From Octopus vulgaris (lineage: Eukaryota): a stretch of 64,000 nucleotides of DNA. Made by a program: the position numbers and the translations under genes. Positions 10,713 to 47,072 of the stretch are shown here, in pieces. Under the pieces are notes generated by a model, which saw only the letters and a program-made list of their open reading frames with translations, was not told the DNA's origin and did no database searches. Where the stretch lies: the NCBI GenBank assembly GCA_951406725.2, contig OX597814.1:117614001-117678000 (forward strand). Direction: 5' to 3'. Position 1 is the first letter of the stretch; every line of letters starts with the position of its first letter.

Positions 10713-12155
10713 TTAGGAATCCATGAACTCGATAAGACACAACACACACAAATGAAAGAGAAAATAAAAAAAGAATATTATAGACGAGTTAGATCAATAC
10801 TAAACACAGAGCTCAATGCTAAAAACAAGATAATAGGTATCAACACTTTAGCTGTCCCAGTTATAAGTTACAGCTACAATATCCTTAACTGGACACGAAA
10901 TGAACTGACCAAAATAGACAGGAAAACAAGAAAAATAATGACAGGATCTAGGATGCATCACCCAAAATCTGACATAGAAAGACTATATATACAACGTATA
11001 GAGGGTGGTAGAGGCCTTATACAGCTGGAAAACTACTATAAAATAACCACCATAGGACTGCAAAAATATCTACTTCAGAAGGAAGGAAAACTGATCCAGA
11101 TAGCGGCAAAACACGAGCAAAACAAAAAACTGTTCTCAGTATTTAAGGAAGCTGACAAATACAAACAAGAAATCATACCACCTAATAAACATGAAGAAGA
11201 AGAAGAAGATGAAGAAACAACAAAAGCTATAAAAAAAATGAAATCCAAACTAAAAATAGAACAGCAACGAACCATGATAAAACGATGGCAAGAAAAGCCC
11301 CTTCATGGTAAATACTGGACTAAACTAAACGCAAAAGAAATAGACAAACAAAAATCCCAGCAATGGTTGAGAAGCTCAGGACTCAAAGCAGAGACAGAGG
11401 GATTTTTAATTGCAGCACAAGACCAAAGCCTCCCCACCAGAAATTACCAAAAACATGTAATGAAAAGAAATATTACAAGTAACTGCAGAATATGTGGAGA
11501 TGGACAAGAAACAATAAATCATATTATCTCTAGCTGCCCAGTCCTGGCTAAGAAGGAATATATTCACAGACACGACAGAGTTGGAACTTACATACATTGG
11601 AAGCTATGCCAACATTATGGAATAACAACAGAAAAAAGATGGTATAGGCACACACCAGAAAAGGTCACAGAAAACGAGAAAGCAACCATACTCTGGGATA
11701 TGCCGATACACACAGATAGAGAAATTAAGGCCAACAGACCAGATATAGTTGTCAGAGACCATGAAGAAAAAAATGCTTTCTAATTGATGTATCAGTACCG
11801 GCAGATGACAACGTGTCTCTAAAAAAAATGGAGAAACTCTCAAAATACAAAGACCTGGAAATAGAGGTAACTAGAATGTGGAATCTGAAAACAGAAACAA
11901 TTCCTATCATAGTAGGTGCATTAGGCATGATAAAAAAATATTCAGACAAATACATAACAAAAACACCAGGACTTACAAACACATATAACATACAGAAAAT
12001 TGCACTACTAGGCACTGCACACATCCTACGCAGAACACTTTCCATACAATAACCATCAGAGCATCACAACAAATCACAGCACATACCCAAGGCACACAGA
12101 GCTGCGCTCGGTAGTGAAGTGAAAGCACGCTATAAAAATAAAAATAAAACTACTG
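10713..12155 (+). mobile_element. 5'-truncated R4/Dong-clade non-LTR retrotransposon (thumb, CCHC finger, REL endonuclease)
   Basis: GGRGL, CRICGDGQETINHIISSC, RHD, NRPDIVV, KLSKYKDL motifs; one frameshift in the A-run near 11770; bounded by (TAA)n. Confidence 0.92.
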
Positions 12156-12167
12156 AATAATAATAAA

Positions 12168-13475
12168 ATACGAAAACTGTTGACAATGCATAGAATGCAA
12201 CACCCTAAGGCAGATACAGAATGACTTTATCTGCCAAGGAAAGAGGGAGGCCGTGGACTTTTACAACTGGCAATAACAATTAAGATTGCTCCAATTGGTC
12301 TAGACAGCTACCTGAAAAACTCTGAGGACTGGATGTTAAAACTTGTTTCAAAACATGAAAACAAGAAAGCATCATACTCAGTAACAAAACAGGCAAAGGA
12401 ATATATAAGTGAATTCCGAATACAACAAATTTCGGAATTAGAGATAGACATACAAGAAACAAGCATAGAAAAAGCTAGGCGCATGAAAACCCGTGCTAAA
12501 ACTGCTGCCTTAGATATTCTGAATGATAAATGGCAAGAAACACCTCTCTATGGCAAATACCCAAAGAGAGCGAATAATGCAGATGTTGACAAAGCCCTGA
12601 CCCATCATTGGCTAATGGCCTATGGCTTAAAATCTGAAACAGAGGAGTTTATCACAGCAGCTCAAGATCAATGCCTACTAACAAGAAACTACCAGGCCAA
12701 CATATTAAAGAACGGCAGTAGCCCAACATGTCGTGTATGTCAACAACAAAATGAAACCATTGATCATGTTGTCTCCAAGTGCAGTCTTCTAGCGCCTACA
12801 GAGTATCTCAACAGGCATGATAGAGCGGCACAATATATTCACTGGGTAATCTGCAACAACTTGGATTTGCCCCATGAAAAAAAATTGGTTGGAACACAAA
12901 CCACCCCCAGTGCTTGAAAGTGACAACATCTCACTCTTCTGGAACTTCCCCATTCAAGCTGACAGAAATATAGATGCAAATAGGCCAGACATCATATTGA
13001 AAGACTTCAGACAAAGAACATGCCTCCTCATTGATATGACTGTCACAATCGATATAAACGTATCTGTCCAGACCTACCAAAAACTGAGCAAATATAAAGA
13101 TCTTGAAATAGAAATCAGCAAAATGTGGAACCTGAAGACTAAAACAATACCTGTTGTCATAGGTGCCCTGGGAATGATAGCAAAAGGGGCTGATTGCTAC
13201 CTAACTCAGATACCAGGAAACCCCAAAATGGCAGAAATTCAAAAGTGCTCATGGGAACTGCTCATATCCTACGCAAAATACTTTCTATGTAATCTCAAGG
13301 TTTAAAACAAACAATTTTTTTTTTAGACATCCACTAGTACAACAAAAAAACAACAACCCAAGATATGGCACACTAGGCATAACAACAACGTGAACTTCCA
13401 ACCTGTTGTCTCTTGAGGTCTCTGGGTGAGACTTGGAGCTAACTTGTACAAGTATAAAGCAAAAGTCAAACATAG
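12168..13475 (+). mobile_element. Second 5'-truncated R4/Dong-clade element
   Basis: ORFs 12333-12917 and 12874-13305: CRVCQQQNETIDHVVSKC, RHD, NRPDII, KLSKYKDL; followed by (TAA)n. Confidence 0.9.
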
Positions 13476-22675: not shown

Positions 22676-25600
22676 ACTTTGATACTTTGATAGGTTTCGG
22701 CCATTATTGGCCCAGGCCATGTCTAACTTAATAGCACCACCTGGTGAAGTCTTTCAAGTCAGAATTTGGGCACTATGGCCCACTCAAGTAGAGAGTTATT
22801 GTTTACAGAGACATATCCGGGTGTAGGGGGTTTATCCGGGATTTCTTGAAGGAATCTGTCCAAAGACTTCTTGAACCCTATAGGGTCAGTTTCTGTTTTA
22901 ATGTGTTTTGGTGTAATGTTAAAGAGAGCGGGGCCAATTGAGGTGAAATAATTGTGCCGTATTGTTGTTATGAGATGAGAGTGCGATTTTTGTTTTGGGC
23001 GGATGGCACGGGGCCCAAGCCTTGGATGTACCTTAAAGGTGATGCCAACATCATTTGGGCAATGCTGATGGAATATTTTCCACATCATGCAGATGATGTA
23101 GCGCTCACGACGACGTTGGAGAGAATAGAGTTTTAGCTTTTCTAGTCGACCCCAATAGTCGAGGCCTGTCATGCCATCTATCTTTTTTGTGATTGCCCTT
23201 TGAGGTGCTTCGACTTTTATGATACCTTGTATTGTGTGGGGAGACCACAGTGGACAACAGTATTCAAGGTGGGGTCGGGCAAAAGTGGAGAAGAGAAGGA
23301 TAATGGTGTGGATATCTCTCGACTGGAAAGTTCTGAGAATCCAGGAACACATTCTGCGGGCCATGTCAACTTTGGTGTTTATATGAGTGGCCCAGCTTAC
23401 GTTGTTGTCCACAATTACTCCCAAGTCTCTGATGTTGTTGGACGCCGCGAGAGTTTCACCTGAAGGAAGGGAGTATGGGAGTTTCAGGGCATCCTCTTTT
23501 CCAAAGTGGATTAGCTCAAATGTATCCTCGTTCAGCAGCATATTGTTTTTTTCTGCCCATTGGATAACAGCCAGTAGATCTGACTGAAGGCATGTCCGGT
23601 CACTCGCCTCATTTATGACCTTCTGTAGCTTGGAGTCATCTGCAAAGATTTTTATGTTGCTGTGCTTGATGATGTCATTAATGTCATTAATGTAAATGAT
23701 GAAAAGAAGTGGGCCCAGCACAGTGCCTTGCGGAACGCCACTACTGACTTTGGCTGGGCTTGATTTTACCCCTTCAACTACAACATGTTGAGATCTGTCT
23801 GTCAGGAAACACTTAATCCATTTCAGTAACTTTCCAGAGACACCAATGTTGGATAGTTTTTTCAATAGGATCTTGTGATCGACCCTGTCGAAGGCCTTAC
23901 TGAAATCAAGGTAGATGACATCGGTGTTGGAGCCCTCTCCCAAAGCTCTTAAAATGTCCTCAAAGTGATGCAGGAGCTGCGTTAGGCAGTCCCTTCCATT
24001 ACGGAACCCATGTTGGTTGGAGATCAGCCGTCTGTTGCTTTCCAGAAATTGGGTTATTTGAGATCTCACCACCCTCTCAAATACCTTGATGATATGAGAG
24101 GTGAGTGAGATCGGACGGTAATTCACTGCAAGGGACTTGTTTCCCTTTTTGAAAACTGGGACAACAGACTGGGACAGAAGGTTTTTTGGAATATAGCCAG
24201 CATCCAGTGAGTTTCTCCACAGATTAGCAAGGGGAGATGCAAGTTGGTGTCGACACACCTTCAGGACACAAGCAGGGAACCTATCGGGGCCTACTGCTGA
24301 ATTGTGTTTTATTTCGTTTATCGCCGCTAAGACATCAGGGGTACTAAACGTTATGTCCGATATAGTGTGTTGGGGGTTGACATCACTGATACAGCCCAGA
24401 TCGGCCATATCAGGATTGCTGAAAACGGAGCAGTATTGTTTCTGCAGTATCTCGGCCATGGATTTGGCATTATCTTGGAGAGTGCCAGTTTCGTCAATTA
24501 GAGGGCCTACAGTGGAGACAGTGACCCTGCGTTTCCTCGCAAATGAAAAGAACACTTTGGGGTTGAGTTTGATTTTTTCAATGGCCCACTTCTCCTCAGC
24601 TGATCTTTGGTTATTGATGAGGGACTTCATGCATTGTTGGAGGTTATATTTTTTGGATTCAAGCAGTGCGATAGCCGTCGAATGTGTGTGTTGCTGTTGG
24701 CAGTACTTTAGTTTGTTAATTTTTTTGTTTGTTCTTTTTATTTTTCTGATAATGGTTTTTCTGTTTTGGGGGATTCTGCACTTTTTGTTCACAGGTCTTG
24801 GTGGGGAGTGTTTTGCACATATGTCTGTGACGGTGTCTACAAAGATCTGCCAAGATGTTTTATGGTTGGTGGAGATGTGTGTATGTGTAAAGGACCAGTC
24901 AACATTTGATAGCTCGTTCCTGATTGCATCCCAGTTGGCTTAATGGAGATCCATGTTGTCAAATGGGTGGGCTGGAGGAAGGTCACTAGGATTAGCTTTC
25001 GGCTGGTGTAATTTCATGTTACAGAGAACCATGTCATGGTCTGAAAGAAGGGTTTTTTCCACTGTAACGTTATGTATAGTGTTAGTGTGGTTACTAAACA
25101 CTAGGTCCAAAATGTTCTGATGTCTTGTTGGTGCAAGGACAAGTTGGGACAAGAAAAACTCATTCGTAAAGTCGAAAAGTGACTCTGCTGCTTCTTTGTC
25201 AGCGGTTGAGGCGGGAGTGCTTGGTTTCAAACAGTTTGTAGTCCAGTCAACACAGGGTAGATTGAAGTCTCCCATCATGAGTATGTTGCTAGAATGGCAC
25301 TGTTGAATAAAGCACTTAATGCTGTTGAGGCATTCTTTAAAGCACAGTATGGGTGTTTGGGGCGGCCTATAGAGCCCAATTACTGTCAGGTCATTGGCTT
25401 TGTTGTGCACGGTGACTGATTCACAGTAGCCGTTGGAGAATATACTATTTCCATCTGCCGTAAATGAATCATGCAGGAAAATGGCAGTTCCACCCTTCCT
25501 CCTGCCGATACGATCCGCGCGGATGGTTGTGAAATTCTTCACTCTCACTTCGGCTTCCAAGTGGGAGTTGTCAAGGTGGGTCTCAGTGAGAATGAAGAAA

Positions 25601-25752
25601 GGGATGTGGTGTGAATGGTTACCAACCCAGTCTTCAATGAATTGGACCTTCCATTTTTGTGCATTGATGGAAGGGCTGACACCTTGTGCATTGAGTAGGA
25701 ATGTGGAGGTTAGTGTAGTGGCTGGTTTTGACTGTTGCAGGGGGCTTGGATT
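22676..25752 (-). mobile_element. Young CR1-group LINE, ORF2 (APE endonuclease + RT) with one premature stop
   Basis: LTETHL, GDFN, SDH (APE); YRPISL, QHGF, YLDFSKAFD, GVPQG, FADD (RT). ORFs 24940-25827 and 22759-24792 are in the same frame, separated only by TAA at 24940-24942. (TATCAAAG)2 tail; inserted in (TATG)n. Confidence 0.95.
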
Positions 25753-25904
25753 TATGTATGTATGTATGTACATGTATGTATGTATGTATGTATTTATGTA
25801 TGTATGTATGTATGTATGTATGTACATGTATGTCTGTATATATGTAAGTATATATATGTATTTGTGTATAAGTGCGTATGCATATTTATGTCTATATATT
25901 TAAG

Positions 25905-28079: not shown

Positions 28080-28495
28080 CGCAGGAGTGGCTGTGTGGTA
28101 AGTAGCTTGCTAACCAACCACATGGTTCGGGGTTCAGTCCCACTGCGTGGCATCTTGGGCAAGTGTCTTCTTCTATAGCCCCGGGCCGACCAATGCCTTG
28201 TGAGTGGATTTGGTAGACGCAAACTGAAAGAAGCCTGCCGTATATATGGATATATGTATATGTATGTGTGTGTATGTGTTTGTGTGTCTGTTTTTGTCCC
28301 CCTAGCATTGCTTGACAACCGATGCTGGTGTGTTTACGTCCCCGTCATATAGCGGTTTGGCAAAAGAGACCGATAGAATAAGTACTGGGTTTACAAAGAA
28401 TAAGTCCCGGTGTCGATTTGCTCGACTAAAGGCGGTGCTCCAGCATGGCCGCAGTCAAATGACTGAAACAAATAAAAGAGTAAAAGAGTAAAAGA
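28078..28495 (+). mobile_element. Full-length tRNA-derived SINE family A
   Basis: A box TGGCTGTGTGG, B box GGTTCAGTCCC, internal (TA)/(TG) tract, 3' stem-loop CAGTCA-AA-TGACTG, (TAAAAGAG)n tail. Confidence 0.92.
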
Positions 28496-28505
28496 ATATA
28501 TATAT

Positions 28506-30830
28506 ATGATAGCTATCACCGAGACTTGGCTGACTCCAGCAGTAAAGGACTCAGAAATCCACCTACAGGGCTACGTCCTCTTCAGATGTGACAGAGAAAA
28601 AAGGCGAGGTGGAGGTGTTGCTGTGTATGTTAAATCTGATCTCAAACCGTCCAGTGGTATTCTACCCACTAATGCTCAACCTACAACAAAATTCGATGAC
28701 GTCTATTGCAAGCTGAGCCTATCCGAGTTTTGCCTGCCCGTGTTAGCTGTCTACATGCCGCCTCTTGCCGCCCTCCAGGACGATGCTCATTTACTCGAAG
28801 CGATAAGATTCGTTTCAGCTTCGCATGACTGTTTGATACTAGGAGACTTCAACGCACCCACGATCGATTGGCCCGCATCAATTTGTACATCATCTTCCCG
28901 GTTCGGCCAGGCCCTTCTTGACATGGCTGAAGATTGTTTTCTATCGCAACATGTTGAATATCCGACAAGGCATCGGTCTGGGCAACAGCCATCTATGCTG
29001 GATCTGGTATTCTCCCGCTATCCAAGATCAGTGTCAGACGTATCTGTGTGCGCCCCTCTTGCCAAGAGTGATCATGCGGTCCTGAAGTTCGTCATGCAAA
29101 CAAATTTTTCTACGCCCACGACTACTTCGCTGCCACGTAGAGTCTTCTCTGCAATTAATCTTGAAATTCTAACCGAGGCTTCCGCGCTTCTGGACTGGCG
29201 ATCCCTGATGACGTTGTCCTCAGTTGACGATCTATGGTCATCCCTCAAAGCATATATAATCTGGTTGAATGACCAGGCAGTTCCCGTTGAGCTTCCCAAG
29301 AAGAAGAAACACAAGCCCTGGGTGACGAAGAAGGTTAAACGAGAACTTCGACTCAGAGATATTGCTTGGGCTGAATTCAAAAATCTGGATTCGACTGCAG
29401 CTTTTGAGGTGTACAAAACTCAACGAGACCAATCTGCCCAATTTTCAAGAAAGGGAGCCGCGAAGACCCGCTTAACTACCGACCGGTTTCTCTTACATCA
29501 ATAATCAGCAAGATGTTCGAAAGCATCATTAAGAAAAGTATGATGCTCCACCTCCAAAACACAGCCTCTATCTCTGATTCCCAACACGGCTTCGTGCCGA
29601 AGAGATCATGCTTGACCAACTTACTGGTAATGGAAGAATTGGTGACGCGCATCCTTGATGATAGTGATGCTGTTGACATCGTTTTATTGGACTTTGCCAA
29701 AGCTTTTCACTCGGTAAACCACCGCCTATTACTTGTCAAGCTTCAAGCATATAGTTTCCATCCAGATATTGTACGATGGGTTGGTGCCTTCCTCTCAGAT
29801 CGCTCCTTCCAAGTCCAAGTTAATGGTTTGCGGTCCGATGTCTCCAGTGCGAGCAGTGGCGTGCCTCAAGGTTCACTGCTTGGGCCCTTATTGTTCTTAG
29901 TCTTCATAAATGACTTGCCCGACGACCTCACGCAACACACCCTTCTATTTGCCGACGATGTCAAACTGGTCGCTCCTCGCGGTGATATAGAGGATCTTCG
30001 TCGATGCCTCCACCAAATTTGGAGATGGTCTAACGAATGGGACCTGTGTCTGAACGTGTCAAAGTGCTGTCATCTGCCTGTTGGCTCTCCTCCTGCAACT
30101 CAACCTGATTTCGAGTCGGGTCATCTGCTGCTGGAGAGGACCGATCAGGTAAAGGACCTGGGTATCTTGGTGGATTCCTCCTTTTCGCCTTCCGCCCAGT
30201 GCGTCCATGCTGCCAACAAAGCACGCGGAATTCTGTTCCTGATTCGACGGTCATTCGGAATGCTCACAGCAGCCATATTCCTACCACTCTATGTCACGCT
30301 GGTGAGACCCATATTGGAGTACGGGATTCAAGCCTCTTCTCCTTATCTCCTCAAAGACATACAGCATCTCGAAAGAGTCAAGAAGCTGGCTACCCGCATG
30401 GTTCATGGTCTCAAACATTTGTCCTATGAAGAAAGGCTGAAGACGCTCGACCTTTATTCTCTAGAAAAACGCCGCCGTCGTGGTGATCTCATTCTCGCCC
30501 ACAACATCATAAGCGGAAAGTGTAACCTCTCGAAAGAGCTGTTCTTCACTCCTGCTCCAGAGCGTCGGCTACGGGGTCATTCCGAAAAGCTCTACCTGCG
30601 ACGATTTCATCTCAATCGAAGGAGAGGAGCTTTCTCCGTCCGGGTTGCGGTTCCGTGGAACTAAGCTGCCAGACGAGATGGTGAAGATGCCAACGACCGC
30701 TTTGTTCAAAGCCTCCCTTGACCTCAAGTGGCCTGAACTCTTTACCTGAACACCATACTGTACTTAACTCCATGTCTCCCTACATGGCCTTGCTATTTGC
30801 TTTTGAGCCAAATGAACTAACTAACTAACT

Positions 30831-42400: not shown

Positions 42401-43797
42401 TTAGGTCGTCAAGACAAAGAAAAATAATTTTGGTAATGTTTTTACATAGAAGGAATGGCTTTATTCATCAAAGTGTGCACCCACATTGTCAATACACTTT
42501 TTCAATTTCAACAGTTGCTTGTCCAGACCGAAACTGTAAAAAAGCTGGCAATATAGAGTCAATAAAATCTTGGAAGAACTGTTTTGCAGCATCGTTAGAA
42601 TTTTTATCCTATCAAAATATTATCCAAAGTCTGGAAGAATTAGTAGTCAGTGGGGGCAGATCAGGTGAGTATAGTGGATGATGGATAACTTCCAACTCGA
42701 AATTCTGTAGTTTCGCCGAAGTCATTTTTGCGATGTGTAGTCTGGCTTTGGCTTGCAATAAAATAGAAGTGGATCTACTGACTAAAGTAGGCTGTTTGTT
42801 TGTAAGTTTTTTTGCATCATTTAGTCCAGGTAGCTGCAGTATACGTCGGCCGTGATTGATGAGCCAAGTTTAATGAAATCATAATGGATCACACCTGGGC
42901 CAGAACACCAAATACGCACCATCAGCTTCTTTTGATGAATTTTTCTTTTTGGATTCTTTTGGTGGGTTGGCTCATCTTTGTCCAGCCATTGTGTTGAACT
43001 TCTATGGTTGTTTTATTGGATTAATTTCTCATCATTCAAAAATGAATCATTTCGATCTCGTACCTTTGACCTCGCAAATGAGCAACGCGGTCCTTCAGAA
43101 ACAAAGGTGGATAATGATGAACTGAAAGCCACAAACGACTTAATAATTAATGCAGGTGATATCTAAGTATCTAGAGCGAATCGGTTGCGCAGAATTTGCA
43201 ATATTTTCTGTGGAGGTTGTATGTATTTAAAGAAAGTAGCGTAATGCAGGCTTCCAAACGTTGTTATTTCTAATTTTCAATGAGCTCATATAGAACCCAT
43301 TTATCCAAATTTTTAACTTTACCCATTTGAACTATGTGAGTGAATATTGTTTGCTTGAAAACACCAAACAACAACGATAATTCCGAGGCACTTTGAAATG
43401 GATGTGACTCGGCTGTGGCTTTCAGTTCGTTATTATCCACCTTTTTTTCTGGTGGACCGCGTTACTCATTTATGAAGTCAAAGGTACGAGAACGAAATTT
43501 CGCAAACCAATTTTTACTGCCTGTTCTGAAATAAAATTAGAAGGAAATACTCGATTAATAATCGGAGTTGTCTTTGATGCTGCATTTCCAAGAAAGAACT
43601 CATATCCATTTCGAAAAAAAAAGTAGCAAAAAGTGATTTGTAAATACTATATAAAGCGCAATGAGTTAGAATTTAAAAAAATAGATGTGCCAGCTTTCTA
43701 ACAAAAAAATATTATCAAAATATTATAATGGTGCAAAATGAGCAGGTATCACAGTTTACCATATACCTTACTACAAGTTTCATACCTGACGACCTAA
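42401..43797 (-). mobile_element. Decayed, rearranged mariner element
   Basis: TIRs TTAGGTCGTCA / TGACGACCTAA, each flanked by TA; minus-strand HPLYSPDLP near 42655-42685; N-terminal KVDNNELKA remnant near 43420-43450. Confidence 0.8.
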
Positions 43798-44279
43798 TAG
43801 TTACTACATGTGATACCTAAGTATCTAGAGCTAATCAGTTGCGCAGAATCTGCAATATTTTCTGTGGAGGTTGTATGCATTTAAATTACTGGTAAGATAT
43901 ACAGGTTAGCACACTCGAATGGATTAAGTTTTTCGTTCTACTCAAATATGATGATAGAAGTAAAATTAAACTCACTTTACATGATGATGTTTGTATAATT
44001 TCTTGCTGGCAGGGCTCCGTTACTCATTTGTATTGTTGATGTTGTGTAACTCCTCATTAATTCAGTTTTAACAGATGTATCATTCAGACTACCCAAGCAG
44101 GGCGAATCTTTTATTTTTTGTAAGGACATGTGTCAATTAGCAAATAATTAAGATTTTTCAATCACTTCAATATGCTTTGAGGCAGTTGTATCTGTTTGGC
44201 AGCTCTTGGTTTGCTCTAGATCAAGCTGATCTACAAACTTTGACACATATAGGTATAGAGATTCTATGACAATTTTATA

Positions 44280-44842: not shown

Positions 44843-45167
44843 CTAATATCACTTTCAAAGATTTCATTATACGAATTAGTATTGACAGATTGCATGCTTT
44901 CATGAATATTTATTGATATGTATGTTTATATAAATAAATATGTAAAAAAATATACTTGAACATATATATGTGTGTGAGTGTGCGCGTGTGTGCGTGTGTG
45001 CCTGAATGTATATATATATGTGTGCACTCATATATCTATTCATGTATATATATATCCGCCATTTACCGGATATATGATTTATAAACATTCCATGTGCTTG
45101 GCCGGAGTGGGCAGTTGTCTGTTCGTCTTCGCTACGTAAGGTTGGTAGTTTATTTATGATGTGTTCA

Positions 45168-45236
45168 GAATCAGTTCTGCTGAGGATCATAAGACGTAAG
45201 TTGAATGTGAAATCACGGTGATACAGAACAAAATTC
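45168..45236 (+). ncRNA. Type I hammerhead ribozyme, copy 1 (predicted cleavage after A45223)
   Basis: GAAT-CA-GTTCTG-CTGAGGA-T-CAT-AA-GAC-GTAA-GTT-GA-ATG-T-GAA-ATCAC-G-GTGAT-A-CAGAAC-AAA-ATTC. Confidence 0.85.
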
Positions 45237-45647
45237 ATTTTTTAAATGTCTTGCTTTGAAAAACTGCATTTAGGTATGATTAGTATAATTTTGGTAGTAA
45301 TGACTTTGTCCCTCTTAGTGTGAGGCATTTATGTGTAATAATGCCCTTTATACAATATAGATATAATTAATTTGTTCAAAAGAAAAAAATTATTTTCGAA
45401 TTCTTTTCTTTTATGAGGTTTTCACGCTAACTACCCGATAATTTCTTGTTAATATCCCTTATTAAGAGATTATCCTTAATTGTTAAACTTATTCCGAAAT
45501 ACTTTTCATTACCCGACATGCAGTTCGTAAAAAGCCCGCCATTTACCGGATATATGATTTATAAACATTCCATGTGCTTGGCCGGAGTGGGCAGTTATCT
45601 GTTCGTCTTCGCTACGTAAGGTTGGTAGTTTATTTATGATGTGTTCA

Positions 45648-45716
45648 GAATCAGTTCTGCTGAGGATCATAAGACGTAAGTTGAATGTGAAATCACGGTG
45701 ATACAGAACTAAATTC
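45648..45716 (+). ncRNA. Type I hammerhead ribozyme, copy 2 (predicted cleavage after A45703)
   Basis: Same as copy 1; stem I extends to AGTTCTG/CAGAACT. Confidence 0.85.
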
Positions 45717-45967
45717 ATTTTTTAAATGTCTTGCTTTGAAAAACTGCATTTAGGTATGATTAGTATAATTTTGGTAGTAATGACTTTGTCCCTCTTAGTG
45801 TGAGGCATTTATGTGTAATAATGCCCTCTATACAATATAGATATAATTAATTTGTTCAAAAGAAAAAAATTATTTTCGAATTCTTTTCTTTTATGAGGTT
45901 TTCACGCTAACTACCCGATAATTTCTTGTTAAGATCCCTTATTAAGAGATTATCCTTAATTGTTAAA

Positions 45968-46005
<38 letters not shown>

Positions 46006-46687: not shown

Positions 46688-47072
46688 GGCACAGGAGTGG
46701 CTGTGTGGTTCGGGGTTCAGTCCCACTGCGTGGCATCTTGGGCAAGTGTCTTCTGCTATAGCCCCGGGCCGACCAATGCCTTGTGAGTGGATTTGGTAGA
46801 CGGAAACTGAAAGCAGCCTGTCGTATATATGTATATATATATGTATATATATATGTATATGTATGTGTGTGTTTGTGTGTGTGTGTTTGTCCCCCTAGCA
46901 TTGATTGACAACCGATGCTGGTGTGTTTACGTCCCCGTTACTTAGTGGTTCGGCAAAAGAGACCGATAGAATAAGTACTGGGCTTACAAAGAATAAGTCC
47001 CGGTGTCGATTTGCTCGAATAAAGGCGGTGCTCCAGCATGGCCGCAGTCAAATGACTGAAACTAGTAAAAGA
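46688..47072 (+). mobile_element. SINE family A
   Basis: Match to 28078-28495, with a short deletion in the head. Confidence 0.9.

Follow-up and report, generated by a model that had tools for sequence, protein, structure and literature searches.

What kind of element carries two hammerhead-like motifs 480 nt apart in a short tandem repeat of Octopus vulgaris, and how did it reach its site? The repeat lies in a 64,000-nt stretch of contig OX597814.1 (hereafter the window, to which all coordinates without a locus name refer). An earlier note on this DNA had proposed a retrozyme moved by the enzymes of Penelope-like elements (PLEs). We conclude, with a probability of about 0.9, that the repeat is a non-autonomous non-LTR retrozyme inserted by PLE enzymes. 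The form of RNA that served as the template is a separate and less certain question.

Structure of the repeat

Tandem Repeats Finder delimited a repeat of 917 bp at 45056-45972 (period 480, 1.9 copies, 99% identity) with a GC content of 32.5% and (TA)n on both flanks. Four of 437 positions distinguish the copies (45117/45597, 45230/45710, 45348/45828 and 45453/45933), and the description of a 437-bp direct repeat with about 99% identity and a period of 480 in (TA)n was thereby confirmed. Both ends of the insertion lie inside the (TA)n, and no target-site duplication is readable (the retrozyme criterion is more than 4 bp when one is present). No ORF of 100 aa or more lies inside the unit; the sole stop-to-stop frame that touches it, 113 aa on the minus strand, starts in the flank. 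The features used below are as follows.

45056..45972, + strand: whole insertion, 1.91 units of the 480-bp retrozyme repeat in direct (non-inverted) layout, with the 5' truncation at unit position 1 and the long end
45056..45535, + strand: unit 1, 480 bp, unit positions 1-480
45536..45972, + strand: unit 2, 437 bp
45045..45055, no strand: (TA)n target, left part, assigned from the sequence
45970..46002, no strand: (TA)n target, right part, overlapping the last three bases of the element
45168..45236, + strand: type I hammerhead 1, core 45180-45186, GAAA 45209-45212, near-palindromic stem III, predicted cut after 45223
45648..45716, + strand: type I hammerhead 2, core 45660-45666, predicted cut after 45703
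45224..45703, + strand: 480-nt monomer RNA, predicted from the hammerhead cut sites
45324..45347, + strand: conserved hairpin immediately 5' of the short end, repeated at 45804-45827
45354..45365, + strand: short end site, unit positions ~299-310, a fixed 3' end of the family; internal in the window copy
45963..45972, + strand: long end site at unit positions ~428-437, a fixed 3' end of the family and the one at which the window copy stops; also at 45483-45492

The short and long end sites are probably the points at which reverse transcription starts. Folded as a circle, the predicted monomer has a computed energy of -109.2 kcal/mol (z -3.9 against 40 dinucleotide shuffles). The private variants of the window repeat (62A, 293T and 398T) were carried by none of 199 pieces from other loci, and none of these pieces joins A at 45597 to A at 45230 across the cut site. 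In the neighbourhood, 46690-47040 is presumably a SINE-like repeat, and sequences resembling it occur beside several other loci. A 90-nt inverted repeat pair (87%) within 43049-43498 and a 97-nt direct repeat (90%) within 43135-43885 are possibly MITE remnants.

The hammerhead fold and its conservation

Both units contain the CUGAGGA core, at 45180 and 45660, followed by GAAA and stem III at 45209-45223 and 45689-45703, and the AUA triplets end at 45223 and 45703. Stem I is 6 bp long in copy 1 and 7 bp in copy 2, and loop II is GUAA. Thus, of the complete hammerhead claimed for each unit, the cores, GAAA, the 6-7 bp stem I, GUAA and AUA stood, and stem II needed correction: its first pair (10.1-11.1) is a U·U mismatch and the stem contains a 2x2 internal loop. 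A U·U at 10.1-11.1 weakens hammerheads, and the axolotl HHR_Amex2, which has the same mismatch at the base of stem II, showed 22% cleavage as a monomer and much better cleavage as a dimer (PMC7229834). Eight of nine predicted Xenopus retrozymes showed no cleavage in vitro (10.64898/2026.07.22.740005). By the nearest-neighbour model, the hammerhead fold of copy 2 has an energy of -9.9 kcal/mol and that of copy 1 one of -8.2 kcal/mol, and an alternative fold, the computed minimum, is lower by about 3 kcal/mol. Stem III has +0.8 kcal/mol as a hairpin and -11.9 as a two-copy duplex. Since it is weak in the first form and stable in the second, folding as a dimer between copies is supported, as had been expected from its 1-nt loop.

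An Rfam 15 search, which the earlier note had suggested as a check, gave no hammerhead match in 11 kb (E up to 1) or in the repeat itself (E up to 10), yet the fold is upheld by motif counts and covariation. Genome-wide, the 18-nt stem III motif was matched exactly 864 times and the 24-nt conserved hairpin (45324-45347) 1238 times; both reversed controls gave 0. Among approximately 170 copies, N7 is the only polymorphic position of the core (C 109, G 45, T 14, A 1), and loop II is GUAA or GCAA. Across 18 sequences from three families, 93.2% of the cells were paired, as compared with 22-42% in slid controls. Changes on both sides occurred in 8 of 15 stem pairs, and the covariation score was reached by 0 of 500 shuffles, in a test with few independent events and a structure drawn from the same sequences. 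The covarying stems are I and II, across the three sister families. The U·U at the base of stem II is invariant in the window family, and the sister families have G-C, G-U or A-U there. From the motif counts (864 versus 0) and the covariation of stems I and II, a chance look-alike is ruled out, and these comparisons indicate that the hammerhead fold is under selection.

A young and dispersed family

A genome search with the unit gave at least 203 matches on many contigs (40 scored of 1606 candidates). Identity was mostly 96-100% among the 150 matches listed. Judged by sequence comparison, the window locus belongs to a tandem repeat family that is young, non-coding and dispersed as many arrays. 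The sample of this family consisted of 57 stretches: the window, 38 around the best hits and 18 in the list order of a motif search, two of which turned out to hold a sister family. Arrays contained from less than one to 12 full 480-bp units, lengths that are inflated because 38 of the 57 stretches were chosen as the best full-unit hits. Sister family A (30 loci) is ~73-74% identical to the window unit in the best-aligned part, and sister family B (21 stretches) is 81% identical over the aligned columns.

The unit and its head-to-tail joint were also present in contigs of four runs from four labelled organisms. In short-read contigs, loose TA ends occurred at 45365 and 45492 (both sites in X15, the short site in X16). 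As the contigs of independent runs contain the unit, the joint and the fixed ends, the family is not an artefact of the window's assembly. Unit depth was ~11-16 in contigs of X1, X5, X9 and X14 (up to 43 in X14), runs that we guess to be RNA. A 509-nt contig in X9 corresponds to one unit plus the word length, which a circle and an array fit alike. These contigs speak neither for nor against expression.

Several related loci differ in structure. Six (L250, L254, L256, L260, L267 and L275) belong to older subfamilies with other stems II, some altered cores and the same two end regions. At L094:1016-1746, L102 and L103, a sister family has a (TA)n tract inside the unit at the short-end position. 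The sister-family copies at L079, L091 and L094 (G000:C17) share kilobases of flank at 96-99.75%, probably through segmental duplication. In the array at L040 with L222 (G000:C2, ~63.53-63.54 Mb), a long retroelement with coding sequence has split the unit at position 76-81, with a 6-bp duplication.

Two fixed ends and their pairing rule

The arms of the arrays end at two places. Among 91 arms, 84 end at the short (~300-310) or the long (428-446) unit position, points ~130 nt apart, and 81 of these 84 run into TA-rich DNA. In the window family, 32 of 60 clusters are inverted: 26 of them join a long with a short end and 6 have one irregular end. A sister family gave 7 and 5, respectively, among its 12 inverted clusters. 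In all 44 inverted insertions, therefore, 33 were long plus short, 11 had one irregular end, and none was long plus long or short plus short. These counts treat the gap-split loci L033, L054, L056 and L040 with L222 as irregular or direct, and by inspection they look long plus short. Direct clusters ended at the long site in 17 cases, at the short site in 9 and elsewhere in 2; the window copy is direct and has the long end. The 5' ends are evenly spread, with 1 of 84 at the hammerhead cut site. An excess of 5' ends near the hammerhead seemed possible by eye but was not supported by the count (12 of 49 long arms, p 0.21).

The insertion features of PLEs were all observed: a tail confined to one end, truncated copies in inverted orientation, and a TA-rich target. 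In PLEs, the one-end tail and the inverted truncated copies are found together with a preference for (TA)n (10.1101/2021.04.23.441226). The tail has been traced to two internal start sites of reverse transcription, and the enzyme of the Anolis Poseidon PLE, a predicted dimer, nicks and extends both strands (PMC11167929). The unit behaves as a non-autonomous PLE; without an ORF for RT/GIY-YIG, it is not an autonomous one. Thus, the retrozyme identity given in the earlier note is supported by the type I fold with covariation in three families and by dispersal, and its proposal of PLE mobilisation by the fixed ends, the long-plus-short rule (33/44) and the TA-rich flanks.

The template of insertion

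Substitution distances were 0.26% within arrays (399 pairs, excluding L041, which consists of two insertions) and 0.39% between opposite arms (range 0-1.9% in 97 pairs from 20 loci). Different loci were 1.70% apart (15,389 pairs). At L051, L052, L056 and L065, private variants are fixed in all units and in both arms. If the RNA is mobilised in trans from a mixed pool, the near identity of the arms and the fixed private variants suggest that both arms were copied from one molecule, or at least from the RNA of one source locus. The cut site was passed once by 73 of 84 arms and twice by 42 of 84, numbers inflated by the choice of full-unit hits. The even 5' ends, the single end at the cut and the arms that cross the cut indicate that cut linear monomers were not the usual template. 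The earlier note had taken the 1.9-unit layout of the window copy as the mark of a circular RNA; this argument falls, because a fixed PLE-type start point with a random 5' stop explains the length.

The longest array is a sister-family insertion, L224-L225 (G000:C1:64639652-64655252), with 15.6 kb, 30 full units, an inverted arm and long plus short ends. Only 9 substitutions were found in 34 pieces of it. Its hammerhead has a short stem II of canonical appearance. A homogeneous array of 30 units would be explained most simply by a circle, and a purely linear lineage would shrink in each generation.

We consider it somewhat more probable than an even chance that the whole chain holds, that is, a PLE-mobilised retrozyme twin-primed on a circular RNA template. 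Read-through transcription of an array would be its first step. Neighbouring hammerheads, whose fold is indicated by covariation and whose cutting is predicted, would pair through the palindromic stem III and release 480-nt monomers, and a host ligase would close the monomer, as the literature on other animals suggests. A PLE enzyme would then nick both strands of the (TA)n. The two strands would be primed within a single RNA molecule, at the short and at the long site, respectively, and each cDNA would extend for a random length, often several turns, presumably by rolling on the circle. Survival of one arm would give a direct array, as at the window, and survival of both a head-to-head array. 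A bolder form of this account, which we put forward tentatively and at rather less than even odds, is that a viroid-sized RNA circle is still active and that an intact co-resident PLE supplies a dimeric enzyme, for which two fixed sites of a single circle serve to prime both target strands, with up to 30 turns. If this were true, the genome would record the retrotransposition of a retrozyme directly, and the template, the target and a candidate enzyme would all be intact for reconstitution.

Alternatively, the same PLE-mobilised element might use an uncut linear multimer as the template, the arrays being lengthened and homogenised later, in DNA by unequal crossover or conversion, or else by template jumps; the hammerhead would then serve another role, e.g., transcript trimming. 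We regard this as unlikely, though it is the most serious competitor. Insertion by the only PLE reconstituted so far was normal with mutated hammerheads, and its main substrate was RNA that had not been cut (PMC11167929). An autonomous PLE forms tandems as well, and the uniform 5' ends suit uncut multimers as well as circles. Furthermore, units of an array that are not neighbours sometimes carry the same variant (in the 30-unit array, 241A occurs three times; L031 and L045 are further cases), which points to duplication or conversion at the DNA level or to polishing. On the other hand, internal priming with 5' truncation would shorten such a lineage in every generation, yet very young arrays reach 12-30 units. 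Private variants in every unit and both arms would need a bottleneck of a single unit, arrays that mix subfamilies are rare (L048 and L049, one odd unit each), and the ribozyme fold has been kept across families ~20-27% apart.

At L248:1150-1560 (G000:C1, ~13.339 Mb), the 3' region of a PLE with a 1312-aa frame and the unit are finely interleaved over ~250 nt, hammerhead on hammerhead. Most likely, the assembly has merged two different insertions at a single TA site into one consensus, and consensus errors of this kind could homogenise arrays. A gappy outer unit at L043 resembles the interleave.

Co-resident PLEs as candidate helpers

Two young PLE-like families are present in the genome, with open frames of ~840 aa in one and of 1312 aa in the other, whose copies are 99-100% identical. 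The 1312-aa element (RT/GIY-YIG) is inserted in (TA)n and ends at two sites 57 nt apart, with two copies at an intermediate site; in 6 of 6 hand-picked inverted pairs, a short end is joined with a long or longer end. The spacing from the cut site to the short end is 123 nt in this PLE and 131 nt in the retrozyme unit. Its PLE label rests on weak RVT_1 matches to parts of the frame, on Atlas neighbours, which carry HTH_animal/GIY-YIG/RVT_1, and on the tandem and inverted structure, and may accordingly be called putative. We take motifs in the frame to be PLE-type, which adds to the label. In Pfam, the 1312-aa frame had no match at full length and the 841-aa frame had just one, weak and unrelated; a PDB search with the PLE-like frame gave none.

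This very young family is represented by L141:2263-6198 and L126-L153 with intact 1312-aa frames, and its hammerhead-like motif has C in place of the core A9 in 15 of 15 copies. The second family (~840 aa; L156:3907-6429 and L106-L125) has a minimal hammerhead in which stem III is palindromic and stem II opens with U-A or U·U; its 3' region exceeds 3 kb. An older PLE family, from L054, consists mostly of broken copies with 35-74% identity. Three candidates for a specific partnership were rejected. The end-motif match with the 1312-aa PLE failed as proof because the motifs are absent in a sister family that uses the same end positions, and the best common word of unit and PLE is 11 nt, at the score level of shuffles. 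The PLE frame beside the sister family in L091/L094 is not a joined ORF, since it lies ~820-840 bp off, beyond a TA tract. The ORFs of the window are LINE-type remnants and do not qualify as helpers.

10713-12917, 22759-25899 and 28476-30664: remnants of LINE type, in which RT, AP endonuclease or zf-RVT domains are found

Could the repeat be the pseudo-LTR (pLTR) of a coding PLE still to be found, and the loci its 5'-truncated partial tandems? The order of hammerhead, ~130 nt, short end, tail and long end does mirror a PLE pLTR, Xenopus retrozymes are homologous to pLTRs (10.64898/2026.07.22.740005), and the evidence against the idea spans five PLE protein queries and a sample of loci. Nevertheless, we find it improbable. 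In 139 stretches, 31 of which have a PLE protein match, the unit never continues upstream into PLE coding sequence except across a TA tract, and the common 5' flanks among them are the same locus twice, a SINE or one duplicated trio. The other copies thus did not prove to be pLTRs of coding PLEs, the outcome that the earlier note had named as damaging, and its claim of no coding signature holds for these stretches as for the unit. Moreover, up to 30 exact 480-bp units cannot derive from a PLE unit of 3-5 kb. The unit shares no significant sequence with either PLE family tested (33/60 and 27/60 shuffles score as high), and homology to a pLTR was not found for these two. A past origin of the unit from a pLTR is likely.

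That the repeat is a local tandem duplication, a satellite or an assembly artefact with a chance hammerhead look-alike is scarcely credible: the Rfam search was blank and assembly artefacts do occur in this genome, but the idea is refuted for the family by its fixed ends, dispersal and covariation, the joint recurs in four independent runs, and the window copies differ at 4 sites and stop at the family's long end.

Comparison with known systems

Like the window family, metazoan non-LTR retrozymes are tandem repeats, rich in AT and without coding sequence, in which each unit has a single type I hammerhead; a stable predicted circle and co-resident PLEs are further common traits (PMC7229834; 10.64898/2026.07.22.740005). 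The unit of 480 bp compares with 150-450 bp (PMC7229834) and 51-972 bp (10.64898/2026.07.22.740005). The family differs from described members in a longer stem II with an internal loop and a palindromic stem III of 4-5 bp. Neither (TA)n targeting, nor two fixed ends, nor inverted long-plus-short arms are described for retrozymes in the available portions of these two reports. All sequence-level features of non-LTR retrozymes that were tested were found, apart from pLTR homology, and this assignment is made on sequence grounds. Unlike part of the Xenopus retrozymes, the window family has no pLTR homologue in the two PLE families tested. In Xenopus, such homology was reported for 21 of ~57 retrozyme families; 24 families matched 22 elements, 21 of them PLEs (10.64898/2026.07.22.740005). 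Since the homology is seen in only part of these families, it is not obligatory.

Endonuclease-positive PLEs share with the window family the partial tandems, the inverted 5'-truncated copy and the one-end tail (10.1101/2021.04.23.441226), and PLEs share the internal RT start sites, two in number, the targeting of (TA)n or otherwise AT-rich DNA and the hammerhead upstream of the ends (10.1101/2021.04.23.441226; PMC11167929). In contrast, the window family has no ORF, a full-size instead of a minimal hammerhead, up to 12 full units (30 in the sister family) and a tail of ~130 nt, compared with 30-40 bp in PLEs and 57 nt in the co-resident PLE. The satellite 2 hammerhead repeats of newts and salamanders likewise have a weak stem III rescued by dimer folding (PMC7229834), whereas the window family consists of short arrays at dispersed sites, each inserted on its own and bearing PLE-type ends. 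Plant LTR retrozymes resemble the window locus in having two hammerheads that flank a non-coding monomer, which would circularise. Their type III hammerheads, LTRs, 4-bp target duplications and Gypsy helpers were not seen at the window family.

No cephalopod retrozyme was found in the literature searched (main texts, few of them from subscription journals), although supplements could list the family; the words ribozyme and retrozyme are absent from the available text of PMC13282606. PLEs are regarded as a strong candidate for moving animal retrozymes (PMC7229834), and the mechanism of retrozyme mobility is described as remaining to be elucidated (10.64898/2026.07.22.740005). What is new here is a readable PLE insertion signature in a retrozyme, for which no precedent was found in the main texts searched. 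The family is young enough for its insertion ends to be read, and nearly every copy carries the signature, with the strict long-plus-short rule and one haplotype in both arms. These features make sharp predictions for the existing in vitro PLE assay, and offer a way to ask whether circular RNA is a real template of retrotransposition.
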